A stretch of DNA of 64,000 nt from Candidatus Levyibacteriota bacterium. GTDB lineage: Bacteria > Patescibacteriota > Microgenomatia > Levybacterales > UBA12049. A model generated the notes under the pieces. The model saw only the letters and a list, made by a program, of their open reading frames with translations, was not told the origin of the DNA and did not search any database. The stretch lies in NCBI GenBank assembly GCA_016432345.1, contig CP066685.1, positions 624,236-688,235 on the forward strand. The letters run 5' to 3'. The position numbers and the translations under genes were made by a program. This document shows, one piece after another, positions 1 through 27,266 of this stretch (its first letter is position 1; the number at the start of each line of letters is the position of its first letter).

Positions 1-1544
1 TCGCGATATTCCCTTAATTGGTTTTGTATATCTTCTTCATGATCTATATAACTTTCAAGTGCTTGTCGCATTTTGTGCTCAAGATAGACTCTACAATATC
101 CTAAATAACTCTTTTTATATCCGAAAAATCGAGCTCTTTGCTGTAAAGTATCAGCATTCCCAATACCTGTGCTTCTAGGCATGTAGGTAACTGTTAATCC
201 TTCAACTGTGAATCCTCGATCCATTGCTTGACCACCAACGAGAATATATGAATAACTACCTTTCCAATCTATTAGAGGTGTTTGACCTCTACTAGCATTT
301 ACCTCTTGAACTCGTGTCCTCCTGATTGCTAAAGGAAGATATTCAAGCAAATTTTCAAAGGGAGGAAGACCATCAACTGTTTTTGATAAATCTTTATAAC
401 TCTCTTTAAACTCGCCTATTAAAGCCTGTTTATCGGGTTCGTTATCGGCAAGAGATAATTCGTTTTGAAATCTTTTCTGAATTTCGTATACCCATTGAAT
501 GAATTGACGATGACCAATTGTCGCCTGCGATGGATGAATAAGCATTGAACGATTTCCTTTACGATCTTGCCCAAGAACAATAGCTGTTGCTACCCCTAAG
601 AAAAACACCCTCAAAGATGACACAAGAGTTTCTGGGGGTATAAGATTGTTCAAATCAGGTTTCTCGCTATCCGGAATAGTATGAACAAGATCATTATGAT
701 CTCGAAAGAACTGTTTTCCTCCTACATAATCTGGGCCTGGTGTTAAAATTTCTGCAAAATCAGGAGAAAGGATATCGATTATACTTATAAGTAAGGGTGC
801 TTGAGGTGTAGCAGTATATTGTAAAAAAGTATGATTTGGTAATTGTTTACGAATCCCTAGAATACAGCCGTATGTTGTGCTTGTTTTCCCCTTTTTCACT
901 TGAGTGTTCATGCTAGCTTGATCAGCCTCGTCATCAATAACTAATACAGGTAACTCTGAAATATCCAAATCACCTAAAACTTTTGCTAGATTATTTAGAT
1001 GGGTGTGATTTTTCATAACCGTAATCAAAATAGTTTGGCAATTTTTATTAGCAACGAGAGGATCACGCCAATCTTCAATTACTCTTCTAATTGCATCTTC
1101 ATCGCTCCAACCCTTTGGATTATTAAATGATATCCATGCTCGATCAGAACGCTCATTAAAACGTAAGTCCTCCTGCAAACGTGTTTTTGACTGACCAGAC
1201 AATGGAACAGAAGTACCAGATATTACAATAAGAATTGGATACCCATTATCTCTTGCCATTGCAGACACTCCTGTAAATGACAATGTCTTACCGCTTTGTA
1301 CGTATCCAATTACTAATCCTGTTCCTGCTCCTGAATCAAGTGCTGGAGATACACATTTGCCTAGAATTCTTCGAGTTTCCTCTGTAAGGCTAGCCTTACT
1401 TTCTTCTGGTATATCTTTGAATTTAAGTAAGTCAAGAAATTCATTTCCAACCGTAGGTTCCCAAATTATTTGATTAAAATTTTGCTCAGTAACAATTTCT
1501 ATTGTTTCTGAATTATCTGGTTGTATTAAGTTATCTTTTTTCAT
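1..1544 (-). CDS. Z1-domain NTPase (partial; C-terminus runs off the window start)
   Basis: Absent from the ORF track because it has no stop inside the window. My translation of the minus strand from the ATG at 1544 stays open to position 1. Motifs: GLVIGYVQSGKTLSFTG (Walker A-like), LPVLVIDDEADQASMN (Walker B/DEAD-like), GGQAMDRGFTVEGLTVTYMPR (Z1-like). It starts 7 nt after the stop of the upstream GHKL gene. Confidence 0.7.
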   Translation of the reverse strand, partial: MKKDNLIQPDNSETIEIVTEQNFNQIIWEPTVGNEFLDLLKFKDIPEESKASLTEETRRILGKCVSPALDSGAGTGLVIGYVQSGKTLSFTGVSAMARDNGYPILIVISGTSVPLSGQSKTRLQEDLRFNERSDRAWISFNNPKGWSDEDAIRRVIEDWRDPLVANKNCQTILITVMKNHTHLNNLAKVLGDLDISELPVLVIDDEADQASMNTQVKKGKTSTTYGCILGIRKQLPNHTFLQYTATPQAPLLISIIDILSPDFAEILTPGPDYVGGKQFFRDHNDLVHTIPDSEKPDLNNLIPPETLVSSLRVFFLGVATAIVLGQDRKGNRSMLIHPSQATIGHRQFIQWVYEIQKRFQNELSLADNEPDKQALIGEFKESYKDLSKTVDGLPPFENLLEYLPLAIRRTRVQEVNASRGQTPLIDWKGSYSYILVGGQAMDRGFTVEGLTVTYMPRSTGIGNADTLQQRARFFGYKKSYLGYCRVYLEHKMRQALESYIDHEEDIQNQLREYR

Positions 1545-1550
1545 AATTTC

Positions 1551-3092
1551 TTAAGGTTTGGACAGGGCATCTTTGAGATATTGATTAATATTTCTTCGCA
1601 GGGTACTTAATCCTCTAATTCCACTTTGCGCCGCTGTAACTTCTGCCAAAACAATAGCAGTTGCAACGCGTAGAAGTGCCTCTACTTTTTCTGGGTCTGC
1701 ACCTGAAAATTGCACCATAAATGGATGTACTAGCGACATCCTTATTCCAACTTTCCATACATCTTGATCTAAGCTGGGTTGGTTGGAAATATCTACCCAA
1801 TCATCAATTGAAGGGTCAATAGACAAATCTAATGTTATTTCCCAAGGGGTGTTATTTATCTCAAGTTTAATTATTCGTTTAGATGCTTGAGTTGCTTTAG
1901 ATAATTCAATTGGGGGAGTACTTTCGTCTATGGGTGAATCTAGTTGGGATCCAATAACTTGGGGCATTTCTCTTTCTATAACCTCTGCTGTATGCTTTGT
2001 TGCTGATTCAGCTGCACGACGAAGTTCACCCGGACGAGGATTGACTCTATGACCCTCGGCTTGTTTCAAAAGAGGAATAGGTTCTGCATCTAAGTGTTCC
2101 TCAAGTAGTTCCAAAAACGCCTCTTCGTTATCTTCCCACCTAAAACCATCTTTTGTATGGCTTACATCAAACCCTTCTAAATGCAATTCACCATATAATC
2201 GTTGATAAAGAAAACTATTTGGCTTTTTGAAAATAAATTCTGGTCTATATCCTTCATCACCACTTCCTTGAATCACTCTTGATCGACGAAATAAGGCGAA
2301 TCCGGCTTTTGATATGTTAGCTGTTTCTCTAATTGCAGCAAACCCTGACGCGCTTAGTCCTCCTCCTAGATCAAAATTTATTTCTTTTCTCCACTCAATT
2401 TGTGGTCCAAGTTCATCTTTATAGTAAGAAGCTTTTAATATTTCTGGTTCTGAGTAAGACAGGGGATCACCATCAAAAGTAAGTTCTAATATCCCTTTTC
2501 GAAAAAAATCTCTATAAATACTAGCTAGGTGTTCTTTGATTTTAGATATTGTTTTTCCATGAAGGGGTCTATGCAAACCTGACAATGTAACTCGTGTAAA
2601 ATGGATATCTTTATCTTTAGGAGTTGTTTTAATTGTCAACTCTTCCAACGAATCTTGAATAATTTTATTAACGTCAAAATAGACTTCTCGGGCAACCTCT
2701 TCTCCCAATGCACCTGTTCTTACAGTAAATTTTTCTGCGAACCAGCACGCTGCACTCTTCATTCCCATTCCAAATTCATTAAGACCCGAGGTTTCAGGAG
2801 GGACGGCAGCGGGGCGAAATGCTCTAGCATAGTCACCCCTATAGATACCTGCTGCATTATCACTAATTGTAATTTTTCCATCATCAGTCGGATCGATATC
2901 TATACTAACTATCAATTTGAAATCAGAACCTTCTAGTATCTGAAGTTCTGTTGAATGCTCTAGGTAACTTTGGATAGCATTATCAACAAATTCAGCTAAA
3001 GCAAACCAAGGTTTGTAGTTCAGATGCTTAAGCACAGATAAAATGCTGACACCTGGGCGGATATTTATGCTATCAATCGATGCAGAGTCCAT
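1551..3092 (-). CDS. GHKL/Bergerat-fold ATPase (HATPase_c_3-like), Dcm-associated
   Basis: 513 aa. The N-terminus WFALAEFVDNAIQSY and ISDNAAGI...GMGMKSA resemble the N-box and G-boxes of GHKL ATPases. It lies between dcm and the Z1 gene on the same strand. Confidence 0.7.
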   Translation of the reverse strand: MDSASIDSINIRPGVSILSVLKHLNYKPWFALAEFVDNAIQSYLEHSTELQILEGSDFKLIVSIDIDPTDDGKITISDNAAGIYRGDYARAFRPAAVPPETSGLNEFGMGMKSAACWFAEKFTVRTGALGEEVAREVYFDVNKIIQDSLEELTIKTTPKDKDIHFTRVTLSGLHRPLHGKTISKIKEHLASIYRDFFRKGILELTFDGDPLSYSEPEILKASYYKDELGPQIEWRKEINFDLGGGLSASGFAAIRETANISKAGFALFRRSRVIQGSGDEGYRPEFIFKKPNSFLYQRLYGELHLEGFDVSHTKDGFRWEDNEEAFLELLEEHLDAEPIPLLKQAEGHRVNPRPGELRRAAESATKHTAEVIEREMPQVIGSQLDSPIDESTPPIELSKATQASKRIIKLEINNTPWEITLDLSIDPSIDDWVDISNQPSLDQDVWKVGIRMSLVHPFMVQFSGADPEKVEALLRVATAIVLAEVTAAQSGIRGLSTLRRNINQYLKDALSKP

Positions 3093-3141
3093 ATTTTGCT
3101 TTTGCCAGGATTATTATAGTAAAACCAGATGAAAAATGATA

Positions 3142-4476
3142 CTAGGCTGTCCGATCAATAGAAGCGAAACGAGGGATATAATATTCATCATGGCCGATTC
3201 GTTTATTTGCTAAATCATCATCCTGCAGCAGAGAGCCAGCGATACTTTCTACTATCTTAACATTTACCGCGTTACCTAGCGCCTCAAAGGCTTTAGTTTG
3301 GTTGTCTGGCAAATAAGATAGATCTTGCATACTTTGCAATCTTGAGCATTCTTTAGGTGTCATATATCTCTTTTCCCAACCAATTATTGGGACTTGAGTA
3401 GAAGTCATAGATACAAGGGTTGGAGAAGTTGTTGGTCTTTTAACTCTGACACCAGATGCCCTAAATTGGATTACGTACTTCCAGATATTCCTTTTTCCAT
3501 CTACACAGTTCCACTCCAGTTTCTGCAAGCTGGAGGGAAACCGCAAAATTTCAGGCATCCATTTATCAATCCACTCTTTGTGTTTTTTGTAAAAATCCCT
3601 ATTCTGTCTTATAAAATCAATTTTCCAATCAGGAAATTTCTCCTGTTCGGTTCTCGCATGAGAAGGTAGAGCGCTCATGATCTGGTCATCTGGTAGATTA
3701 CTTAAATCTTGGCCGTGGCTTCCTTTATATTTTTTCAGTTCACTTATTCCCATTACATGGGGTGTTGTATCCTGAAAAGGATAGGTAGCCCCAAATTCCA
3801 TTGACCATAAAGGAGATGGAACTTTTACATCAGTTGGAACCAGATCTAAAAATTTTTGCCAAGTGTTAAGACAATCTTTTACCTGTTTTGACAAGGTTCT
3901 AGCATTCGAAGGTTTGTAATTCAAAATTGATCTGATTGATAATTTTTTGTTAGTTTCTTCTTTAGGCCATGAGAAATGGAGAAGTCCTTTTCTACTGCCC
4001 ACAATAAAAAATCTCTCGCGAATTTGAGGTATGTTAAACCTATGAGGGGATAGTTGCTTAGCGTCTATAATGTAGCCAATATTCTCTAGCTGTTTTTTGA
4101 TTAACTTCCAAGTACTACCATTATTGTGTGTCTGAATGTTTGCAACATTTTCTAGCATTATATAGGATGGCTTATGGTATTTGATAATTTTTAGGACATA
4201 CTCAAAAAGATCACCATTTCTTGGACAATCAAATCCTTGCTGATCTCCAGCTTTAGAAAATGGCTGACAAGGGAAACCAGCACACAAAATGTCGTGTTGA
4301 GGAATACTTTTAATCGCTACGTTCCGTATATCACCCGTAGGTTTAATTCCAAAGTTTTTTTCGTAGAGTTGTATAAGTTGATGATCTATTTCGCTTGCAA
4401 AAACACAAGTATGCCCGAGGTCGTTCAATGCTTGATGAAAACCGCCTAGGCCAGCAAATAGGTCAATAAATTTCAT
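3142..4476 (-). CDS. dcm: DNA (cytosine-5)-methyltransferase
   Basis: 444 aa. Canonical m5C MTase motifs: FIDLFAGLGGF (motif I), GFPCQPFSKAG (motif IV, catalytic PC), MLENV (VI), QIRERFFIVG (VIII), LGNAVNV (X). Confidence 0.95.
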   Translation of the reverse strand: MKFIDLFAGLGGFHQALNDLGHTCVFASEIDHQLIQLYEKNFGIKPTGDIRNVAIKSIPQHDILCAGFPCQPFSKAGDQQGFDCPRNGDLFEYVLKIIKYHKPSYIMLENVANIQTHNNGSTWKLIKKQLENIGYIIDAKQLSPHRFNIPQIRERFFIVGSRKGLLHFSWPKEETNKKLSIRSILNYKPSNARTLSKQVKDCLNTWQKFLDLVPTDVKVPSPLWSMEFGATYPFQDTTPHVMGISELKKYKGSHGQDLSNLPDDQIMSALPSHARTEQEKFPDWKIDFIRQNRDFYKKHKEWIDKWMPEILRFPSSLQKLEWNCVDGKRNIWKYVIQFRASGVRVKRPTTSPTLVSMTSTQVPIIGWEKRYMTPKECSRLQSMQDLSYLPDNQTKAFEALGNAVNVKIVESIAGSLLQDDDLANKRIGHDEYYIPRFASIDRTA

Positions 4477-4708
4477 ATTTTCAAGCTTTCAAAAGAAATG
4501 TATACTTTAATAGTATCAGGTTTATAAGTAAGGAAAGCAACCAACAATATTAAGAATAGAACAATAATACTTTGATACGCAAGATACCAACTTTATATCA
4601 AACTATCCCGAAAAGCTGTATGGTCTTAGGCTTTATTTTTGTTAGCATCTTGAAGGTTATACAAATTTAGCAAAAACATCTGTCAAAAATTATAAATCAA
4701 AATACCAG

Positions 4709-5521
4709 CTAATTCTCAGAATTAAGCTTTTCTATTCTAAAACCAAACCTACGTTTTCTCCCAGATTCACCATTGGTAACAACTGGGATAAGTCCCTCAA
4801 AAGACTTCGATGCCAAAGCTAAAATAATAAATTCCTGTAAAAAACAAAAGATGTTGTCATATACGATGTTGATGAATTCCCTAGCAGACATATTTTCTCC
4901 TACAGTTGGGTATTCTTTTACAGGTTTACCTCTTACAATCGTCACTGATAGCGGAGAGACTGTCGAGACCCCGTGATGTTCGGACTTTGTTCTTTGATCT
5001 CGCAATTTTCTCATCCATGGCTCACTATTTTCAATAAGAGCAATTAATTTTGCTACTCTCGGCTGAGATGGAATAGGAACGTTTCTTAAGGAAGCAGCTA
5101 CATTTTTACCAGCATTTTTATATGTAGGTAAATCAATTCCCCAGAGTGGTCTAAGTATTTTTACGGCTGAATCTAATGCAGCCTTTGAATTGCTTACCAC
5201 TTCTTCTACGGCTCCTTCCAACTCAACAGATTTGTCCTGATGAGTAAGGTGAATACTACTTTTATCTTTCTCTGCTCTTTTTATGAGAGCACTCATCTTT
5301 ACCTCCTCAAGTGACTCATAGCGGTCTACAGCTTCTGCGACTTTACCTAATTTCTTCATTACTGAGATAATAGGTTCAATAATTTCACCTTTTTTGTCTT
5401 CCGGTAATTCAAGAAATTTATTAAATTCATGGCAAAGATATGTGAAGCCTCCACCAATTTCCTTACCTTTTTCACTATCCATTTTAAATAGAGAAGTCAA
5501 TGTTCCCGTGATTTGATTCAT
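4709..5521 (-). CDS. hypothetical protein (no recognisable motif)
   Basis: 270-aa ORF, soluble and charged. It stands alone between the Dcm operon and the T4SS-like operon. Confidence 0.5.
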   Translation of the reverse strand: MNQITGTLTSLFKMDSEKGKEIGGGFTYLCHEFNKFLELPEDKKGEIIEPIISVMKKLGKVAEAVDRYESLEEVKMSALIKRAEKDKSSIHLTHQDKSVELEGAVEEVVSNSKAALDSAVKILRPLWGIDLPTYKNAGKNVAASLRNVPIPSQPRVAKLIALIENSEPWMRKLRDQRTKSEHHGVSTVSPLSVTIVRGKPVKEYPTVGENMSAREFINIVYDNIFCFLQEFIILALASKSFEGLIPVVTNGESGRKRRFGFRIEKLNSEN

Positions 5522-5801: not shown

Positions 5802-6086
5802 ATGGGAAATAATATTCCAGGATACAACTCAGCTCAACCAATACAATTTCAAAATCTTGATGCTCTCCTGTGGGGTGTTGTTAAAACTTTACAGTATTAT
5901 TCACTTCCAGTCATGGCTTTATCAATTGCAGTACTAGGCATTGCACTCATTGCTAGTGGAGATGATACCGAAAGAAAATCCAAGCTTCGTGGTTGGATCT
6001 TTAACATTTTGATTGGTGGTTTGTTGGTATTTGGCGCAACAACGTTGGCATCAATACTCAAACAATTCTTGGGTGGTGCAGCCTAA
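5802..6086 (+). CDS. VirB2/TrbC-like pilin-type small membrane protein
   Basis: 94 aa with a strong RBS (GAAAGGAGGAAGG) upstream. It has two hydrophobic helices separated by a short charged loop (GDDTERKSK), which is the VirB2/TrbC topology. First gene of the operon that contains VirB4. Confidence 0.55.
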   Translation: MGNNIPGYNSAQPIQFQNLDALLWGVVKTLQYYSLPVMALSIAVLGIALIASGDDTERKSKLRGWIFNILIGGLLVFGATTLASILKQFLGGAA

Positions 6087-6119
6087 AACTAACCGTTTTA
6101 ATGACCTTGTTTTCAACTT

Positions 6120-7895
6120 ATGAAAATTGTTGCTTTTGCGGGCTTTATTGTCATATCTTTATTCTTTCCTTCTTTTGCCTATGCCCAAACAGCCAGTCCT
6201 ACTCCTACGCCACAACCAGCTCCTGTTATCCAATGGACAAATGAATTTACTGTCCAAAATGAACCATCCTCTGTTATCTCTTTACTGAAAAATTTTATTG
6301 AAGGCTTTGACTCTTTTTTAGGAGGCTTTATCTTTTATACTCCTGATCCATTGGCTTCGACCATTAAATTAAAAGATGACTCAGAAATACCAGGCGTTGG
6401 TAAATACCGAGATATTTTCTATCAAATAGCAATTCCTATCCTGGCAATCATTATTGCCGGGATTGCGATGGCAAAAATTGGCATGGATAACACTCATGAA
6501 TTAAAGGCCTTTGCCATCAGATTTTTAATTGTTATAGCTTTGTTTTTAACAGTGCCACTCGTTCTTTCCTACAGCATCCAGTTTAATAATCTGCTTGTTG
6601 CTAAAATATCAGATACCCAAAAGTTTACCGTCTTTTTAGATGACTATTTTGATAAATCTCAGGAGAAAATAACAGCGGGTGAGAGTTCTGAAAGCTTTGG
6701 TATTCCCTCATTTGATCTTTCTTTAAAAAGCGGTATTTTTAAATCCCTCGGCACGTTTATTGTCCAAATATTCTTATTTGCCCTCACATTTTTATTCCTC
6801 CTGTGTGGCTTTGTCTATTTAGGATTTCTATTTATTATTCGTTTTGCCACTCTGTTATTTTTAGGCATTATTTACCCTGTGATCTTACCTTTTGCTCTAT
6901 CTGAACGAACGCAACCCATTGTCTACTCCTTCTTTAAAACCTGGTTTACCTTTCTTATTCAACAGCCTGCTTTTGTGTTAGGTTTTGCCATTGCCACAGA
7001 TATTTTTAGCGCCATCCTAAATGCCAAAGGCCCAAGTGTTGGAATGTTATTTTTCTACACAGGATTCTTGTTTTTCTTAGGAGGTGTTAATATGTTGGTT
7101 GCCAGAATTTTTGGCGATGTGTGGACAGCAGCATCAACCAATATGGTAGCAGCTATTTCTGCCAGGACTGTGACACAACCAATTTCATCAACCTTTGGAG
7201 ATTTCAAAAAAGGCTTGCTGGGAGGAAGTGTCTCAAGCTTGGTTGGTAGACAAGTGAGAGGATTTGCCAGTGGAACTAAAAAGAAAGAAGAGGATACTAG
7301 TTCTGGTGGAACAGGTTCTAACCAGCCTTCTTCTATACCTAATTCTTACGTTTCCTCAAACAACAATCAATCAGGCGGTAGTAAATACGCCCATCCAACA
7401 AAAGAGGGATTAAGTGTTCCGGTGTTTTCTCAAAAACTGGCTAACAAAGGATTACGCGTTGAACCAATTAATCAAAAACAAGGAGTTGTCAGTGTAACAG
7501 GTGAAGCATTTAAGTATCAGGATAACAAAACAGGCATGACTTCATATTATCCAACCAGAACAGAGGCAATCCAAGATGGCGTACCAGACAAGAAATTAGA
7601 AAAAGTAAATTTGCAGGATGCCCAGTTTATTGATCTATCCTCTTTTGGCAAGTTTAATCCTAATCCCCATAATTTTAATGCCATGCAGGAATCCAAGAAA
7701 AAAGGCAAAGAATTAAACTATGCCTTTATTAACAAGTCCAGTCCTCCACAAAAAGTAAGAAACTTTTTAGACATGGCAAAGGAAAGAAACTCCGCTTATG
7801 GTATCCAGGGAGTAATTGTAGAACGCCAAGCAGCCAAAGGTTCTGATCCAGTAATTAGGATGTATTCCCAAGATAACAAAGGAGGAAAATCATGA
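6120..7895 (+). CDS. VirB6/TrbL-like polytopic membrane protein with hydrophilic C-terminal extension
   Basis: 591 aa. It has a signal-like N-terminus, at least 6 predicted TM helices, and a ~200-aa Ser/Asn/Gly/Lys-rich tail. The call rests on its operon position between the pilin-like gene and VirB3/B4-like genes; its stop overlaps the next start (ATGA). Confidence 0.55.
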   Translation: MKIVAFAGFIVISLFFPSFAYAQTASPTPTPQPAPVIQWTNEFTVQNEPSSVISLLKNFIEGFDSFLGGFIFYTPDPLASTIKLKDDSEIPGVGKYRDIFYQIAIPILAIIIAGIAMAKIGMDNTHELKAFAIRFLIVIALFLTVPLVLSYSIQFNNLLVAKISDTQKFTVFLDDYFDKSQEKITAGESSESFGIPSFDLSLKSGIFKSLGTFIVQIFLFALTFLFLLCGFVYLGFLFIIRFATLLFLGIIYPVILPFALSERTQPIVYSFFKTWFTFLIQQPAFVLGFAIATDIFSAILNAKGPSVGMLFFYTGFLFFLGGVNMLVARIFGDVWTAASTNMVAAISARTVTQPISSTFGDFKKGLLGGSVSSLVGRQVRGFASGTKKKEEDTSSGGTGSNQPSSIPNSYVSSNNNQSGGSKYAHPTKEGLSVPVFSQKLANKGLRVEPINQKQGVVSVTGEAFKYQDNKTGMTSYYPTRTEAIQDGVPDKKLEKVNLQDAQFIDLSSFGKFNPNPHNFNAMQESKKKGKELNYAFINKSSPPQKVRNFLDMAKERNSAYGIQGVIVERQAAKGSDPVIRMYSQDNKGGKS

Positions 7896-21134: not shown

Positions 21135-21242
21135 AAGGGTGCTTAAGAAGTATGATCTACCTGTAATTGAAGAATAAACTATACATACTTATACATTTTT
21201 CAGGCCAAATTGGTAGGCAAACTCAGAGTTTAGACCGTCCTG

Positions 21243-21295
21243 AAGGAATAATTTGAAAAACTCACGCAGTCTGTGCAATATATCGTTGGGATCAC
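21243..21295. repeat. ~53-bp direct repeat, copy 2
   Basis: See 19120-19172. It also reads as TTGAAA-17 nt-CAATAT, which is promoter-like on the + strand. Confidence 0.75.
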
Positions 21296-21299
21296 TGAA

Positions 21300-21520
21300 T
21301 TGGAAATCCCAAAAGAGTCCAAAGGTTGGCTCTGCGCGGGAACGGGCGCGCAGAGCTCTGCAAAGCCCCGTTTGAATTCTGGCACAAGTCGCCGATCAGT
21401 TAAAAAGAAGTTCGAGCCGACAGTTTTTGCTCCGATTGCTAAATCGGAGCATGTATTTTTTGCAAACACAAAAGACAGATGCGCGCGATTTTTTATATTA
21501 TAATCCCGCAAGGCGGGACA
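21300..21520. ncRNA. GC-rich hairpin-dense non-coding island R1 (unknown family; orientation unresolved)
   Basis: Three strong hairpins: 21329-21356 (10 bp), 21429-21450 (9 bp) and 21504-21518 (6 bp). The core GTTCGAGCCGACAGTTTTT at 21410-21428 is shared with 26732-26750. The only ORFs here are mutually overlapping on both strands. Confidence 0.4.
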
Positions 21521-21576
21521 AGACAAAACACAAATGTTTTCTTAGTCAACCCTACTAAAGCTCATTTATATTTAAC

Positions 21577-22533
21577 TTATTGGAGAAACTTAAAGGAGTT
21601 AAGTATTAAATCTACCGTGGCTTTTTCTGTTGGTTCTGTCTTATTTTTAGTATTAACAGCAGCTATCCAAATATAAATTACTTGGTCGCCTAATGGTTGA
21701 AAGTCAGCAAAATAATATACTTTGGAATGTGTTCCATCCTCATATTTAGAAGTCCACACAGCAACATCTTTACCATTTAGAGTTTTTTGTTCTATGGATT
21801 CAGTTTTTGCCCCTTGCTTATCCTCACCATATTTAGCATCATCTTTAACAAAAGCTAGCAGTTCATTCATGTTTGAAACTTTACCGCTATCCTTGTACCA
21901 GAAATATAAATTGGTATCAGTATCTTTATCGGAAGTGATAGTTACTTGCCCTTGCGCAAAAGGATAAGTACTTCTTTTCCAAGACTTTGGATAGTCAAAA
22001 GAGTAACCAAATTTCTTATCTTCATAATGAACCATTTCTCCCTGCTGAATTGTCTTAACATCATTTAGTTTATAAAGAACTACATTTCCTACAACAACAA
22101 GAACCGCAAGTGAAACTAGTCCTAAGAAAATCCAAGTAACAATTTTACCTATTTTTCCAAGAGGTTTGTTTGTACCACTAGCAGCTCTTTTTCCTCCAAA
22201 TCCTCCAATAAGGGTTATTGCTAGTCCTTGCCCAAAAGTAATTTCTTGTGTTAAAAGATAGACAACCACAGCTCCTAGTAAGCTGGCAAATAATGTAATT
22301 GATACTCCCTGCCAGAAAGGAGAGCCTAAAACCTTATTTACTTCTGGTGTTTTAGATAAAGATTTGACTCCGTAATAACCTGCAAGCCATGCAAAAAGTA
22401 GATTAAAAGGGACTTCTATCAAAGGACTACTCCCGCTCCCAAAAAGATAAGCAAAAAATAGGCTAACTGCAATGTTACCAAGAATTAATAATCCACTATA
22501 AATTAGTAAAGTTCGAAGAATTTTTGACCACAT
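21577..22533 (-). CDS. membrane protein with extracytoplasmic C-terminal domain
   Basis: 318 aa with ~5 N-terminal TM helices and a soluble domain (FGYSFDYPKSWK...). No catalytic motif. Confidence 0.6.
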   Translation of the reverse strand: MWSKILRTLLIYSGLLILGNIAVSLFFAYLFGSGSSPLIEVPFNLLFAWLAGYYGVKSLSKTPEVNKVLGSPFWQGVSITLFASLLGAVVVYLLTQEITFGQGLAITLIGGFGGKRAASGTNKPLGKIGKIVTWIFLGLVSLAVLVVVGNVVLYKLNDVKTIQQGEMVHYEDKKFGYSFDYPKSWKRSTYPFAQGQVTITSDKDTDTNLYFWYKDSGKVSNMNELLAFVKDDAKYGEDKQGAKTESIEQKTLNGKDVAVWTSKYEDGTHSKVYYFADFQPLGDQVIYIWIAAVNTKNKTEPTEKATVDLILNSFKFLQ

Positions 22534-22657
22534 ATTATTATTATCAGTATCTCAGAAAAATGGCTCTATTGCAATTAGAATTTTAATTGTTTTTAACTTA
22601 TGCTTTTTGAGGTACTTATCCCTTGACAACAAGGCTTAACTATGCTACACTAGCCTC

Positions 22658-23548
22658 ATGTCAGAAAAATTTAGCCTCCGTTCATTCAAGCAAAAATATG
22701 GTACGCATCAAGACTGCCTCGAAGCTATTAAGCAACTTCGTTTCCCCGATCCTTTTACTTGCCCAAAATGCAATACTATGCAGAAATTTTACCCTGTAAG
22801 TGGTCGTACAGCGTATGCTTGCAACAGTTGTGGAAACCACATCTATCCCCTAGCAGGAACAATCTTTGAGAAATCTACTACTCCCTTAGACTTATGGTTC
22901 TTTGCTATGTATCTTATGACACAAACGAGAAGTGGCACATCGGCTAAACAACTTGAAAGAATGTTAGGAGTAACATACAAGACAGCTTGGAGAATGTTTA
23001 AGCAGATAAGATTGCTTATGGTACAGTCTCCATCACTTTTAGATGGAATTGTGGAGATTGACGAAACATATTTTGGTGGTAAAGGAAAAAACAGAGCCTA
23101 CCAGTGGCATGGTGGGGTAGAGGAAAAAGAAATCATTATGGGCATTGTCAAAAGGAAAGGCACAGCTTACGCAAAACATATTCCTGATACGAAAAAGTGG
23201 ACTTTAATCAATCAAATAAAACAACATGTTGATCCCAAAGCCCATGTCATGACCGATGATCTTGCTTCATACAGACATTTATACGATCATGGATTCTACA
23301 AACACTACAGCGTAAACCATTCAAACAGGGAATACGTTAGACACCACCTTTTCCATACGAATAATGTAGAGGGCTTGTGGTCGCATATAAAACGTGGGGT
23401 TTATGGTGTGTATAGGAAAGTCAGTAAAAAATACTTACAGGCATATATTGACGAATACACCTGGAGATACAATAATAGGAATTATATCGGTGGAATGTTT
23501 GATATCTTGCTAAAACAGGTTACAGAAGTTAAGATAATAAAAGAGTAA
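22658..23548 (+). CDS. IS1595-family (ISXO2-like) DDE transposase
   Basis: 296 aa. N-terminal Zn-ribbon CPKC...CNSC, then VEIDETYFGG and MTDDLASY...NNVEGLWSHIKR, typical of DDE_Tnp_IS1595. Confidence 0.9.
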   Translation: MSEKFSLRSFKQKYGTHQDCLEAIKQLRFPDPFTCPKCNTMQKFYPVSGRTAYACNSCGNHIYPLAGTIFEKSTTPLDLWFFAMYLMTQTRSGTSAKQLERMLGVTYKTAWRMFKQIRLLMVQSPSLLDGIVEIDETYFGGKGKNRAYQWHGGVEEKEIIMGIVKRKGTAYAKHIPDTKKWTLINQIKQHVDPKAHVMTDDLASYRHLYDHGFYKHYSVNHSNREYVRHHLFHTNNVEGLWSHIKRGVYGVYRKVSKKYLQAYIDEYTWRYNNRNYIGGMFDILLKQVTEVKIIKE

Positions 23549-23549
23549 T

Positions 23550-24497
23550 ATGAATGTAGCAGTAAATAATTTCGCAATAGAAATTCGCAATAAATCATGG
23601 GCGAATAATGAGTATATACCCTCCTGGGTCGATATAGATGCTATTGGACTGGATCAGTTTTTCACTCACCCTTCTATTGCAAAAGCATGTTGGGACTCCC
23701 TCTGCAAATACATGCAATTAGATGGTGTCAATATAGCTCATTATAAATTTGTTGAACCAGGAGCAGGGCTTGGAGCGTTTTATGACCTGTTGCCAAAGAA
23801 TCGCTGTATAGGAATTGACGTTGTTCGGTTTCGTCCTGAATATATCCAAAAAGATTTTCTTACATGGTTACCAAGAAAAAATGGTTACAGTTATGCCTGT
23901 GTAGGTAATCCCCCCTTCGGTTACAGAGCATGGCTGGCTTTGGCTTTCCTAAATCACGCTGCTAAGTTTTCCAATTATGTTGGTTTTATTCTTCCTATGG
24001 CATTTCAAAGTAGGGGCAAAAGTAACGTACAAGATAGAGTTAGAGGGCTTCATCTTGCTCATTCGTCGCCACTACCATCTAATAGTTTTGTTGATGCCGA
24101 TGGCAATATCTTGAAGGTGAATGCCTTGTGGCAGATATGGACACGATCAGACAATAAGAAGGTAACCACACCCAAAACATGTAATCAGTATATTGACCTG
24201 TTCACAGTAGACATGAGAAAAGAGCGACTATGTGGGCAAAAACGACTTGATGAGGCAGACTTCTTTTTACAACGCACCTTTTATACCAAACCTCCATCGT
24301 TAGTTACTAACTTTGACCAAGTCAAATACGTGTGTGGCTATGGTATTGTAATCAAGCGTGACAGGAGAAAAGTGCTTAAGGCATTACGAAATGCTGACTG
24401 GAAGCATTACAGTAATCTTGCAAGTCATAATTGCAGACATATAAGCATGGGTCACATCCGTGCAGCATTGACCGATAGAGGATTTATAGATAGATGA
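23550..24497 (+). CDS. N6-adenine DNA methyltransferase
   Basis: 315 aa. Motif I VEPGAGLGAF and motif IV GNPPFGY. Starts 1 nt after the transposase stop. Confidence 0.8.
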   Translation: MNVAVNNFAIEIRNKSWANNEYIPSWVDIDAIGLDQFFTHPSIAKACWDSLCKYMQLDGVNIAHYKFVEPGAGLGAFYDLLPKNRCIGIDVVRFRPEYIQKDFLTWLPRKNGYSYACVGNPPFGYRAWLALAFLNHAAKFSNYVGFILPMAFQSRGKSNVQDRVRGLHLAHSSPLPSNSFVDADGNILKVNALWQIWTRSDNKKVTTPKTCNQYIDLFTVDMRKERLCGQKRLDEADFFLQRTFYTKPPSLVTNFDQVKYVCGYGIVIKRDRRKVLKALRNADWKHYSNLASHNCRHISMGHIRAALTDRGFIDR

Positions 24498-24997
24498 TTG
24501 ATCCATTAGCTTTACTATTAGAAATCGCCAAAGAAAAAACAAAACTAGGTAAATGGAGTGGTCAGCCATTGGAGTTAATTAAGGTCATGCCCAATAGTAC
24601 TAAGGGTGACTTGGTAGAAACCTTTATTATTGAATACAGCAAGGAGTTGGGTTTTGATGTGGTAGATAGAACTAATCGTCTTGGAGATTATGACGCAAAA
24701 ATAAATGGAATGACCTTCGAAATCAAAATGGCAACAGAAGATATTAGTGGAAATTTCCAGTTCAATCACATAAGGTACGATTATACTTACGATTGGATAT
24801 TGTGTGTTGGAATCGCTCCCGCTGATATTATATTTGACATATGGTCCAAAGCCGATCTTGTTACGGGCAAAGCAGGAAAACTTGTGTCAATGGGGCGTGG
24901 ACAAAACTCTAGTTTCAAATTAACAAAACAAAAGAAGTCTTTACACCCAATCAGTGAATTCATGTCGGAAATAAAATCCCTTGCAAAAGAAAAGTAA
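24494..24997 (+). CDS. candidate cognate restriction endonuclease (PD-(D/E)XK-like)
   Basis: 167 aa with a 4-nt ATGA overlap with the MTase gene. GDYDAKINGMTFEIKMA fits D-x(n)-E-x-K. Confidence 0.5.
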   Translation: MIDPLALLLEIAKEKTKLGKWSGQPLELIKVMPNSTKGDLVETFIIEYSKELGFDVVDRTNRLGDYDAKINGMTFEIKMATEDISGNFQFNHIRYDYTYDWILCVGIAPADIIFDIWSKADLVTGKAGKLVSMGRGQNSSFKLTKQKKSLHPISEFMSEIKSLAKEK

Positions 24998-25082
24998 AAA
25001 TATGTACCCCGTAGTTTTATCTATCTAACATGAAGGGATAGTTACCTTATTATTACAACAGAACCCATAAATCCTGTCGTGA

Positions 25083-25307
25083 ATGACTACACCAAGTCCA
25101 TTATACGAAAAAACTGGCGGAATAGAGGTTGCAATTCTTGATTGTTTGGGACTTCTAAGACATTTCCTTCATCTTTTTTATAGACTTAGGGCAAAATTCT
25201 TAGACGAATATCAAGTCGCTTTATTAAAAGAACCCGACAGTGCGGTTAGAGAAGAATTGAAAGAGGCTTTTTTAGCACTTCGAAAGGCCGCTAAAAGTAT
25301 CGGCTAA
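25083..25307 (+). CDS. hypothetical small protein
   Basis: 74-aa ORF only; no RBS or motif recognised. Confidence 0.25.
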   Translation: MTTPSPLYEKTGGIEVAILDCLGLLRHFLHLFYRLRAKFLDEYQVALLKEPDSAVREELKEAFLALRKAAKSIG

Positions 25308-25436
25308 CCTGAAAATTGAATAGCCCGTTTTAGCAGAGTAAGGAAATCCTTTTTAGCTCCTTTACGTCCACCTTGCTTAATGAATGCTTTTAGCTTCTTA
25401 TCGGTTTCTTTCTTTTTCGATTTATTTTTTAGTTTA

Positions 25437-26354
25437 TTATGTTGTTCCATTGACATTGATAGGTATCTCTAGCTGATTGCTATTATCTGCTTGAATAATA
25501 TCTTTTACTTTTAATATTTCATAGTGTGTCCCAATTACTTCGTTATTATAATCATAATTTACCGTTATTTTGACATTTGCTTTTAGTGAATCTCCTGGTC
25601 TAACATTTATTTCTCTTGCTTGGAATTTTCTTAGCCATTCTATGTCAATGATTTTTGCATAAATAGGGATTTTTTCGTGCCGTAACTCCCATTGTGAATC
25701 GCCTAAGTAATCTGGTTTCTTAACTTTAAGTATCATTTCTGTTTTATTTGAAATTGACTCTTTTGTCAGCAAATCCTCTATTGATTCAGGAGAAAAATTA
25801 AATTCTAAATTAAAATCAACTCTTTTTTGCTCAGAAGTAGCAAAAATAACTTTTCCTCCCTCATCTACATATTTTAGAGAATCAGAAATTCTTCTTATCC
25901 CACCAATTAGTTTCGCTGTAGGAATAGGTGAATAGGAAGGGATCCTTTTTACATCTGTTTCTTCCGCCAATTTATATAATCCATCCTCTAATTCTTTAAT
26001 TTGTTCTCGTGAAGAAATCTCAGTTTTTCCATCTAGAAATTTAATTATGGCGTATTTACCTTTTACTAAATAAGATCCAACAGCTTTTTTCCAATCCAAA
26101 TCTTTTAATCCATCATCTGGTATACTTTCTAAAGTATTTTTAAACCACCCCTTAATGGATCCTTTTTTTAAATCTTCCAGTACAGTAATGGGTTTAATTT
26201 TTGAATCAATTGAATTGACCAAATCTTCATCAACAGAATGTAATGCCTCAAGTATTTCCGATAATGTTCTAAAAGCCTTTGAGGGATTTACTTTAGTACT
26301 ATCAAATTGTATTTCTATACCAAAATCAGGTGTAAGATCAGTATTATTTACCAT
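25437..26354 (-). CDS. hypothetical soluble protein (orphan, 305 aa)
   Basis: Long ORF, Lys/Glu/Asp/Ile-rich, with no motif. Confidence 0.5.
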   Translation of the reverse strand: MVNNTDLTPDFGIEIQFDSTKVNPSKAFRTLSEILEALHSVDEDLVNSIDSKIKPITVLEDLKKGSIKGWFKNTLESIPDDGLKDLDWKKAVGSYLVKGKYAIIKFLDGKTEISSREQIKELEDGLYKLAEETDVKRIPSYSPIPTAKLIGGIRRISDSLKYVDEGGKVIFATSEQKRVDFNLEFNFSPESIEDLLTKESISNKTEMILKVKKPDYLGDSQWELRHEKIPIYAKIIDIEWLRKFQAREINVRPGDSLKANVKITVNYDYNNEVIGTHYEILKVKDIIQADNSNQLEIPINVNGTT

Positions 26355-26572
26355 AATTTAACTTTATTTTAAAATCTATATAAATGCAAGGAGTAGTTTT
26401 ATGAAAACTTGCAGTCGCCTTGCTGCAAGTTTAGCAGTAAAACATTAAGAAATCAAGGCATCAAAAATAATCAAACTATTCCTTGTTTTGATGGGATAAG
26501 TGCCCTTTTTGATTTAATTTGCATCAGATAATCAGTCTTGTATTAAGAGCCATTAACTGCTAAATTCTTGAT

Positions 26573-26890
26573 GGACTCAACAATTTACGAAATTGCTTTT
26601 TTTAATGGCGTAATCGGACAACAGAAAGCAATTTCTTGTTGAGTCCACCGGTTACGCCTTTTGAGTTGGAAAACTATAGGGGAAAAGTTCTTTAAAAATT
26701 TTCGCGTTTTTTGGGGTTGCTAAGGCAACCCGTTCGAGACGACAGTTTTTAGAGCTTCGGCCGAAGGCCGAGCGGATAAGAGGCGACGCGAAAAGGCGCG
26801 CGCCGCCTACCTTTGCGATTGGAAACGAGTTCGGATTTTTCGATAAACGCTCACCGTAGCGGGGTCTGATGAATCAGACTTATTGATTAG
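26573..26890. ncRNA. GC-rich hairpin-dense non-coding island R2 (unknown family; orientation unresolved)
   Basis: No ORF of 60 aa or more in any frame. A 22-bp interrupted helix pairs 26573-26599 with 26625-26646, and 11 nt of its loop are complementary to 26648-26658. Further hairpins lie at 26714-26731, 26754-26773 and 26864-26879. The core GTTCGAGACGACAGTTTTT sits at 26732-26750. A possible + strand promoter is TTGTAT-17 nt-TAAATT (26538-26566). Confidence 0.4.
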
Positions 26891-27023: not shown

Positions 27024-27176
27024 TTAAATTGTCCTCTCACCATTTTCCCCATAACCTGAGTAATTATGCTTGTCATAACCTAATATGGCTGTCCTTTCTC
27101 CCTCCATTAATGATTCCAGCATTAATTTAAACATCTTTTTTAATAATTCATCTTTGTTAATATTTTGGTTATTCAA
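27024..27176 (-). pseudogene. 50-codon ORF resembling the N-terminus of an IS256/Mutator-family transposase (remnant?)
   Basis: GGAGGTGA RBS 5 nt before a TTG start. LLKKMFKLMLESLMEGERTAILGYDKHNYSGYGENG loosely matches the conserved LMEAE...LGY...NGY N-terminal pattern. The frame stops after 50 codons and no catalytic domain follows. Confidence 0.3.
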
Positions 27177-27266
27177 ATTGTTCACCTCCCTTCCTTTTTA
27201 GTATAACTTAATCAGGAGTTTACACAATTTAGTTTACAGTACCGAAAATTGTGATACACTAAAAAA

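Follow-up and report, generated by a model that had tools for sequence, protein, structure and literature searches.

The stretch of DNA analysed here (the window, 64,000 nucleotides, with all positions counted from its first letter) belongs to the chromosome of a Candidatus Levyibacteriota bacterium, a member of the CPR, and an element at 22611-26504 carries a transposase gene, a methyltransferase gene and a nuclease gene in direct succession together with three further open reading frames (Table 1).

Table 1. Positions of genes, repeats and sites of the element within the window
Feature	Position	Strand	Remarks
Left copy of target-site duplication, CTTTTTGA	22603..22610		identical to 26505-26512
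Left terminal inverted repeat (IRL), GGTACTTATCCCTTGACAACAAGG	22611..22634	+	start of homology to related elements
Promoter-like site inside IRL: TTGACA, 17-nt spacer, TACACT	22623..22651	+	10/12 positions, TG extension
IS1595-family DDE transposase, 296 aa, intact	22658..23548	+	N-terminal zinc ribbon; Pfam, NCBIfam
Type II-like DNA methyltransferase, 315 aa	23550..24497	+	motif I VEPGAGLG, motif IV NPPF; PADLOC
PD-(D/E)XK nuclease, 167 aa, putative type II restriction endonuclease	24494..24997	+	fold, PADLOC, catalytic residues
Internal second right end, AAGGGATAGTTACC	25033..25046	-	exact 14-mer of right ends of L070, L082, L083
orf74, 74 aa	25083..25307	+	between internal right end and orf50
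orf50, 50-aa basic protein	25304..25456	-	conserved backbone gene of this IS lineage
LAPAL-family protein, 305 aa, candidate defence cargo	25437..26354	-	NCBIfam NF053583, PADLOC PDC-S42, phrog_3243
Outer right terminal inverted repeat (IRR), reverse complement GGCACTTATCCCATCAAAACAAGG	26481..26504	-	20/24 vs IRL; CTTTTTGA directly after
Right copy of target-site duplication, CTTTTTGA	26505..26512		perfect 8/8 vs left copy

Transposase, backbone and additional cargo

The assignment of the transposase to the IS1595 family, made in the initial annotation from the letters of the stretch, has been borne out by NCBIfam NF033547 (E 2.5e-62, 210.6 bits against a cutoff of 75). The catalytic domain matches Pfam PF12762 over profile positions 2-153 of 153 (5.7e-35), the zinc ribbon matches PF12760 (1.5e-11) with C35, C38 and C55 conserved, and D135, D200, E238 and K245 are kept in at least 97% of 74 relatives. 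The promoter-like site within the left repeat ends 7 nt before the transposase ATG, and relatives show the same layout; we infer a promoter function for it, from which the transposase would be expressed. Further promoter-like sites occur within the 3'-terminal part of the transposase gene. Since the methyltransferase ATG (23550) lies 1 nt past the transposase stop (23548), just as first annotated, and no terminator separates the two genes, co-transcription of the methyltransferase and nuclease genes with the transposase appears plausible.

In the lineage to which the transposase belongs, the backbone runs in the order IRL, transposase, convergent orf50, reverse-strand cargo and IRR. The orf50 product bears the C-terminal motif KKLKxWLKKGGREGSKKDFxTLLKRA, and in at least 17 relatives its gene converges on the transposase gene from the 3' side. 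The reverse-strand cargo of the window element is the LAPAL/PDC-S42 gene, which matches NF053583 at 7e-29, above the curated cutoff, PDC-S42 at 2.2e-8 over part of the model, and phrog_3243 at 5.9e-7. The interval from the transposase stop to the orf50 stop contains, in this order, the restriction-modification (R-M) module, the internal right end and orf74. The latter has no match in Pfam, NCBIfam, PADLOC or PHROGs and no relative in any fetched locus, and it is missing from the otherwise parallel element at locus L175; when positions 24998-25320 were compared with all fetched loci by blastn and tblastx, only the 14-17-nt IS end was matched. A nesting origin of the internal end, with orf74 as the decayed C-terminus of a second transposase, has been rejected, as an HMM of 74 transposase sequences gave E = 13 with filters off.

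Methyltransferase and nuclease as a putative type II pair

The initial annotation had also read the two ORFs behind the transposase as a type II R-M pair whose genes overlap by ATGA, and here the comparisons agree with it: the overlap lies at 24494-24497, the methyltransferase matches the PADLOC model MTase_II PDLC03280 over its full length (E 2.6e-59), and the nuclease matches REase_II PDLC03515 (7.3e-16). P70, G73, G75 and N120-P121-P122-F123 of the methyltransferase (VEPGAGLG, GNPPFG) are invariant in 43 homologues, and by the order of these motifs, motif I before NPPF, the enzyme is classed as gamma-type; it is probably N6-adenine-specific (m6A). For the 167-aa ORF a PD-(D/E)XK fold is recovered in a structural model (pLDDT 92.9), for which Foldseek has returned I-Ssp6803I (1.9e-5), Hjc and EcoRV, and the catalytic residues D67, E76 and K78 are invariant in 59 homologues. 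The nuclease gene follows the methyltransferase gene directly in 70 of 80 loci, the remainder being mostly cut off by contig ends.

Single-sequence and profile searches of both proteins against Pfam, NCBIfam and PDB have given no match, and informative results have come only from PADLOC, PHROGs and fold comparison. The methyltransferase model (pLDDT 83) adopts a class I SAM methyltransferase fold and resembles PH1948, METTL5, KsgA and an HsdM, mostly RNA or small-molecule methyltransferases, so that the assignment of a DNA substrate rests on the PADLOC models and on the nuclease partnership. One may consider that the two ORFs are not an R-M system and instead encode, for example, an RNA methyltransferase together with a nuclease of toxin-like or homing type, or a methylation-dependent system, as in structure the methyltransferase comes closest to RNA methyltransferases (PH1948, KsgA, METTL5), the top match of the nuclease is the homing endonuclease I-Ssp6803I, and neither protein falls into a Pfam or NCBIfam family. 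We regard this as very unlikely, however, in view of the two PADLOC type II matches, the invariance of motif I and NPPF, the order of M before R with overlapping genes in most loci, and an identity of the pair of about 70% across phyla, which is the pattern of horizontally moving R-M systems. The two ORFs are thus best described as a putative type II R-M pair, translationally coupled by ATGA, in which the methyltransferase would shield the host DNA and the nuclease would cleave unmodified DNA.

With small orthodox type II systems such as EcoRV the pair shares separate M and R genes, a D...ExK site on a restriction-endonuclease fold and an amino-methyltransferase with an NPPF motif, but it shows no detectable sequence similarity to any solved enzyme, and the window element holds no gene for a controller (C) protein. 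A search for the recognition site through under-represented palindromes in the 64-kb window has yielded only general avoidance (GGCC, GTAC, GATC) and nothing specific.

Ends of the inserted unit

As first annotated, the element was a 2,436-bp unit at 22611-25046, bounded by the 14-nt repeat GGTACTTATCCCTT (22611-22624) and an inverted partner matching at 12 of 14 positions (25033-25046), and it was taken as possibly old or recombined for want of a target duplication. Both repeats have been located, and their distances of 33 nt to the transposase ATG (22658) and 35 nt to the nuclease stop (24997) have been verified; because 197 inverted pairs of 12 nt or more occur in the same 3.6-kb stretch, the 12/14 repeat alone is not significant. 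The end motif as such is real: its degenerate pattern is matched 7 times in the window, where 1.39 matches would be expected. Judged from sequence comparison, the left end at 22611 is a genuine element end: the DNA homology to about ten related elements (including L012-L016, L019, L021 and L022) begins exactly there, about 75 relatives share the left-end motif, the motif GGCACTTATCCCTTGACAACAAG is kept about 47 nt upstream of the transposase ATG in nearly all of them, and the same end definition yields a perfect 8-bp duplication in 50 of 53 related elements.

On the right side the picture has changed. The outer right repeat pairs with the left repeat with only 4 mismatches in 24, and directly outside the two repeats lie perfect copies of CTTTTTGA; the inserted unit ends at 26504 with this 8-bp duplication, and the element therefore measures 3,894 bp, about 1.5 kb and three ORFs more than had been annotated. 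The duplication had escaped notice because the internal right end was chosen, beyond which the next 8 bp read TTATTATT and mismatch the left flank CTTTTTGA. Of the transposon described at first, the left repeat, the genes and the R-M cargo have thus stood, as has the placement of the R-M pair between inverted repeats, and the right boundary has moved from 25046 to 26504. The perfect duplication, which the insertion would have created, argues for a fairly recent event, and before it the target site would have read ...TTATG CTTTTTGA TTTAATTTGC... All contigs with identical proteins have been found to carry one and the same insertion site. Rfam and tRNA scans of the element flanks were empty.

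In known transporter IS (tIS) of the IS1595 family the inverted repeats measure 25 bp and the direct repeats 8 bp (PMC5704250), and only IS1595 and IS66 are so far recognised as families with tIS (bioRxiv 10.1101/2021.05.26.445724; Siguier et al., 2009, cited in PMC3129680). The window element agrees with this description, as inverted repeats of about 25 bp are found at 22611-34 and 26481-504, an 8-bp duplication flanks 22611-26504 and is absent for a right end at 25046, and the passengers between the ends are the methyltransferase, the nuclease, orf74 and the LAPAL gene. Taken as a whole, with its ends, backbone, R-M cargo and proposed steps, the interpretation of 22611-26504 as a 3,894-bp cargo-carrying IS1595-family element of the tIS type with an R-M pair aboard is considered probable.

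The internal right end deserves separate consideration, as it would permit a smaller mobile element of transposase, M and R (22611-25046), with 25047-26504 as adjacent DNA such as the remnant of a second element. Its sequence is exactly the 14-mer found at the right ends of related elements, and units of similar size, composed of transposase, M, R and IRR and flanked by duplications, exist elsewhere (L145 with 2,681 bp, L122 and L166); moreover, locus L176 has the same transposase/methyltransferase junction as the window element and passes after the nuclease gene into unrelated DNA that lacks orf50. The ends of this smaller unit are, however, devoid of a duplication, whereas at the outer end 8 of 8 positions agree, with a chance probability of about 3e-5 as estimated from base composition; its inverted repeats agree at 14 of 24 positions, against 20 of 24 for the outer end; and orf50, which would be left outside, is a backbone gene of the IS in the relatives named above and lies, together with cargo, downstream of the same R-M pair in L175. 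Among closer transposase relatives, where a short element has been sought, the nearest (79% identical) have a plain backbone without R-M genes, and in L176, whose contig lacks a left end, no convincing end motif has been found right after the nuclease. An origin of the present insertion from the smaller unit is considered unlikely. By its sequence the internal site is a genuine IS-end 14-mer, but not the end used by the present insertion, for which the outer right end would have served. In the 3,894-bp element the transposase could choose between two right ends and mobilise either itself with M and R (2.4 kb) or the full 3.9 kb.

Recurrence of the pair and relation to known elements

Exact-protein look-ups with the transposase, the methyltransferase and the left-flank gene have revealed neither an empty site nor a second copy of the exact element. 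Of 39 informative metagenome loci, 8 have a distant IS1595 transposase (25-37% identity) immediately before the same R-M pair, and three of these eight are intact units of transposase, M, R and IRR with inverted repeats and 8-bp duplications (L145, TAAATAAT; L122, AAAATTTT; L166, AAAAAAAA); in L166 the methyltransferase ATG likewise lies 1 nt past the transposase stop. In L175, whose methyltransferase is 84% identical, the 3' end of the transposase gene is followed by M, R, orf50 and genes for 104-aa and 164-aa proteins, after which an IRR-like site has been located at 2789-2802 of that locus. The closest relatives of the R-M genes (L009, L010, L011 and L177) have no transposase, hence the pair exists outside IS elements, too.

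Both cargo-carrying IS1595 elements and transposon-like R-M units have already been described, and the window element adds one more. As in tISCpe8 (lnuP) and MTnSag1/tISSag10 (lnuC), one IS1595 DDE transposase and its passengers are enclosed by a single pair of inverted repeats of about 25 bp, and an 8-bp target duplication and a preference for AT-rich targets are shared as well (PMC5704250). The window element differs from these in its host, a CPR bacterium, in its length of 3.9 kb against 1.7-2.0 kb, in its cargo, an R-M pair and a candidate defence gene in place of antibiotic resistance, and in the possession of an extra conserved 50-aa backbone gene and of two alternative right ends. Furuta, Abe and Kobayashi (2010, PMC2853133) described transposon-like R-M units whose terminal inverted repeats are imperfect and whose target duplications measure 8 bp; one of them, in N. 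gonorrhoeae, has a 26-bp inverted repeat, an 8-bp duplication and a COG3677-type transposase-like gene (PMC2853133). The arrangement of R-M genes between imperfect repeats with 8-bp duplications is common to those units and the window element, but they hold other R-M types (IIP in X. oryzae, truncated IIG in Neisseria) and a transposase that is absent or probably inactive, whereas the transposase of the window element is intact and assignable to IS1595, and many metagenomic loci combine the same R-M pair with IS1595 transposases.

The window element could, on a wider and at present tentative reading that we rate as possible but doubtful with all its features taken jointly, belong to a large undescribed clade of IS1595 tIS in CPR, Acidobacteriota and Chloroflexota, whose members would be modular vehicles for genes of defence and addiction. 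Their cargo may comprise R-M pairs, methyltransferase-Mrr fusions, PIN, Fic and NYN toxins and a DRT-like reverse transcriptase; a CPR-associated branch including the window element may possess the 50-aa protein as a lineage-specific accessory, favour insertion at a distance of 12 nt from TGTCAA, a motif mirroring the element's own end, and use alternative right ends, with cargo gained and lost in blocks.

The families of the methyltransferase (about 1,050 clusters) and of the nuclease (about 190 clusters), which are unannotated and are called hypothetical wherever a source is named, may now be given the label of putative type II R-M components. For the CPR genomes, whose mobile elements are poorly charted, the locus provides a sequence-level case of an R-M system as the cargo of an autonomous single-transposase element with defined ends and duplication. 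In the main interpretation the R-M pair would serve as defence and, as a post-segregational killer, would stabilise the element. On the wider reading, the joining of the same R-M pair to the 3' end of two transposase lineages of about 30% identity would suggest selection for an operon of transposase, M and R, in which the R-M pair enforces retention of the transposon. That two such distant IS1595 lineages are associated with the pair favours a view in which R-M systems are selfish passengers allied with transposons, and the window element, together with L145, L122 and L166, offers concrete candidates for R-M cargo that may stabilise a transposon.

Boundaries of the element

The initial annotation had proposed an IS1595-family transposon at 22611-25046 enclosing a type II R-M pair, and the repeats, the three ORFs and the ATGA overlap it listed have all been found in place, including the left-end motif GGTACTTATCCCTT and its inverted partner (12 of 14 positions). 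Such a repeat alone means little, since the same 3.6 kb contains 197 inverted pairs of 12 nt or more, many of which exceed that length; the end motif is over-represented, with 7 matches (up to 2 mismatches) vs 1.39 expected. Boundaries have been drawn from 80 fetched loci, each encoding a transposase relative (45-79% identity). GGCACTTATCCCTTGACAACAAG lies ∼47 nt 5' of the ATG in nearly all of them, and the left end is correct, because DNA homology between these relatives and the window starts exactly at 22611. Searching each locus for the inverted counterpart of its left end has given element sizes of 1.4-5.2 kb, with perfect 8-bp direct repeats flanking 50 of 53, and the same procedure has returned two candidate right ends in the window. 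The one originally proposed, 25046, matches the left end at 14 of 24 positions and its flank, TTATTATT, differs from the left flank, so that it does not stand as the element's terminus; the outer one, 26504, matches at 20 of 24 and is followed by CTTTTTGA, identical to 22603-22610 (chance of 8/8 at fixed positions ∼3e-5 by our base-composition estimate). Based on this match and the identical flank, the inserted unit is placed at 22611-26504 (3,894 bp). Neither an empty site nor a second copy of the window element has been found on searching.

At least 97% of 74 relatives retain the transposase residues D135, D200, E238 and K245 and the cysteines of the zinc ribbon, and database entries identical to window proteins are labelled "hypothetical" and "IS1595 family transposase" (Candidatus Levyibacteriota MAG). 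A promoter-like site within the left repeat (TTGACA, 17-nt spacer, TACACT) ends 7 nt 5' of the ATG, and the recurrence of this layout in relatives points to a transposase mRNA with almost no leader.

A short ORF ∼520 nt beyond the right end of the element is an IS remnant. Non-coding stretches on either side (21200-21560 and 26650-26880) have a G+C of ∼0.43 in a region otherwise at 0.33-0.37, and Rfam and tRNA scans of them have returned no match. In a CPR bacterium, which is not photosynthetic, the PsbP-like domain of the left-flank protein comes as a surprise; its role is probably a general periplasmic one.

Features of the element, its flanks and related loci (L-numbers, fetched loci with relatives of the transposase or R-M proteins)
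Locus	Feature	Position	Strand	Description
Window	Left-flank gene	21577-22533	-	318-aa membrane protein; C-terminal PsbP-like domain (PF18933, 3.2e-7)
Window	Left repeat	22611-22624
Window	ORF1	22658-23548	+	296 aa; intact IS1595-family transposase; PF12762, PF12760; NF033547 at 2.5e-62
Window	ORF2	23550-24497	+	315 aa; methyltransferase
Window	ORF3	24494-24997	+	167 aa; nuclease; ATGA overlap with ORF2
Window	Internal end	25033-25046		AAGGGATAGTTACC
Window	orf74	25083-25307		No relatives
Window	orf50	25304-25456	-	50 aa; apparent IS backbone gene
Window	LAPAL gene	25437-26354	-	305 aa; NCBIfam LAPAL 7e-29; PADLOC candidate PDC-S42 2.2e-8
Window	IS remnant	27024-27185	-	53 aa; N-terminus of Mutator/IS256-family transposases (PF00872, E 1.3e-4)
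L016, L017	orf50	5872-6024 (both)
L175	orf50	1839-1976
L014, L015, L018-L023, L026, L027, L035, L036, L178, L179	orf50
L145	Element			2,681 bp; 8-bp duplication TAAATAAT
L122	Element			8-bp duplication AAAATTTT
L166	Element			8-bp duplication AAAAAAAA
L083	Cargo	5988-7004	-	N6_N4 DNA methylase fused to Mrr_cat restriction-endonuclease domain
L088	Cargo	5974-7652	-	As L083
L013	Element	57-4710		4.65 kb; perfect duplication AAGACATC
L023	TGTCAA flank	4934-4953		Example among L013-L050
L024	TGTCAA flank	4927-4945		As L023
L048	TGTCAA flank	4936-4954		As L023

The methyltransferase-nuclease pair

Sequence searches of Pfam, NCBIfam and PDB with ORF2 and ORF3 have given no match. PADLOC profiles have matched ORF2 over its full length (MTase_II PDLC03280, 2.6e-59) and ORF3 (REase_II PDLC03515, 7.3e-16), E-values that depend on PADLOC's own labelling. 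ORF2 retains the invariant residues E69, P70, G73 and G75 of motif I and NPPF at 120-123, and its predicted fold is that of a class I SAM methyltransferase; the ORF3 model (pLDDT 92.9) matches the PD-(D/E)XK enzymes I-Ssp6803I, Hjc and EcoRV, with D67, E76 and K78 invariant across 59 homologues. The families comprise ∼1,050 (methyltransferase) and ∼190 (nuclease) clusters, 70 of 80 metagenomic loci encoding the methyltransferase have the nuclease directly after it, and the pair keeps ∼70% identity across phyla. The two genes are a conserved module, which we interpret as a type II R-M system with m6A as the probable modification.

Backbone, R-M slot and internal end

Three further ORFs lie 3' of the nuclease within the element. 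The C-terminal motif of orf50, KKLKxWLKKGGREGSKKDFxTLLKRA, is convergent to and usually overlaps the transposase 3' end in at least 17 relatives; such proteins are basic, about 40-50 aa long and conserved in this IS1595 lineage, and match no described family, the sole match being phrog_6021 (E = 0.0066). Given this recurrent position, orf50 looks like an IS accessory gene and not cargo, and the lineage backbone reads left inverted repeat, transposase, orf50 (opposite strand), reverse-strand cargo, right inverted repeat. The window R-M pair occupies a different slot from that cargo, between the transposase and orf50 stops. Two diverged elements on truncated contigs indicate that this is no isolated case: L175 (methyltransferase 84% identical) runs from the transposase 3' end through both R-M genes, orf50 and 104-aa and 164-aa genes to a site resembling the right repeat, without internal end or orf74, and L176 (83% identical) has the same transposase/methyltransferase junction as the window.

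The motif at 25033-25046 is identical to the right ends of three relatives (L070, L082, L083), and such a 14-mer match inside a 4-kb element is very unlikely by chance. We regard the motif as a true IS end, now internal, which together with the outer end would delimit two nested potential units of 2.4 and 3.9 kb. Nothing else among the fetched loci matches the segment with this end and orf74; orf74 has been considered as a transposase remnant and rejected.

Of 39 metagenomic loci that extend 1 kb or more upstream of the methyltransferase, 8 have an IS1595-family transposase directly before it, and four shorter contigs show partial ones; these transposases share only 25-37% identity with that of the window. 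Three of these elements (L145, L122, L166) are intact, with transposase, methyltransferase and nuclease genes inside inverted repeats and an 8-bp duplication, so the kind of element originally envisaged exists. The window copy is a larger relative, built on a different transposase lineage. The methyltransferase ATG lies 1 nt past the transposase stop in L166, as in the window, and the two genes overlap in L145. The closest R-M relatives (L009-L011, L177) hold the pair without a transposase.

Related cargo, known elements and expected function

A small sample of about 30 passenger proteins of related elements has contained PIN or PIN-like domains (4 cases), Fic/DOC, NYN, N6_N4 methyltransferase fused to Mrr_cat (2 cases), a reverse transcriptase with a PADLOC RT/DRT match, a ClpP-like SDH protease, P63C and Replic_Relax, and many proteins without a match; genes of defence or addiction type recur often, though the numbers are small. 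The R-M-like fusions of L083 and L088 belong to related cargo-carrying "transporter IS" (tIS) in Chloroflexota and Acidobacteriota MAGs, and L013 carries a reverse transcriptase (PADLOC RT/DRT, 3.5e-57) and a Replic_Relax protein. In 13 of 23 CPR-type relatives, one IS tip is flanked by TGTCAA at a distance of 12 nt (4 nt plus the 8-bp duplication), mirroring the TTGACA found 12 nt within the inverted repeat; none of 27 Acidobacteriota/Chloroflexota-type relatives has this flanking motif, nor does the insertion site in the window. This flank suggests targeting of pseudo-ends or -35-like sequences.

The tIS have been recognised as a class, limited to date to the IS1595 and IS66 families (bioRxiv 10.1101/2021.05.26.445724; PMC3129680, citing Siguier et al. 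2009); tISCpe8 and MTnSag1 are bounded by inverted repeats of 25 bp and flanked by 8-bp duplications (PMC5704250). Transposon-like units with R-M genes and 8-bp duplications have been described by Furuta et al. 2010, one Neisseria unit including a COG3677 transposase-like gene (PMC2853133). Judged from its sequence, the window element has every feature of an IS1595 tIS and of a putative type II R-M pair. To these are added a second right end, orf50 as a backbone gene, a CPR host and an R-M pair that two distant transposase lineages have each captured.

Since the transposase-methyltransferase gap is 1 nt and holds no predicted terminator, read-through into both R-M genes would be possible; promoter-like sites in the transposase 3' end (23338-23365 and 23448-23476, from a scan as a whole not above chance) could also drive the pair. 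Placing the methyltransferase ahead of the ATGA-coupled nuclease would fit the usual need for methylation before cutting, and defence together with post-segregational killing would be expected from established R-M biology.
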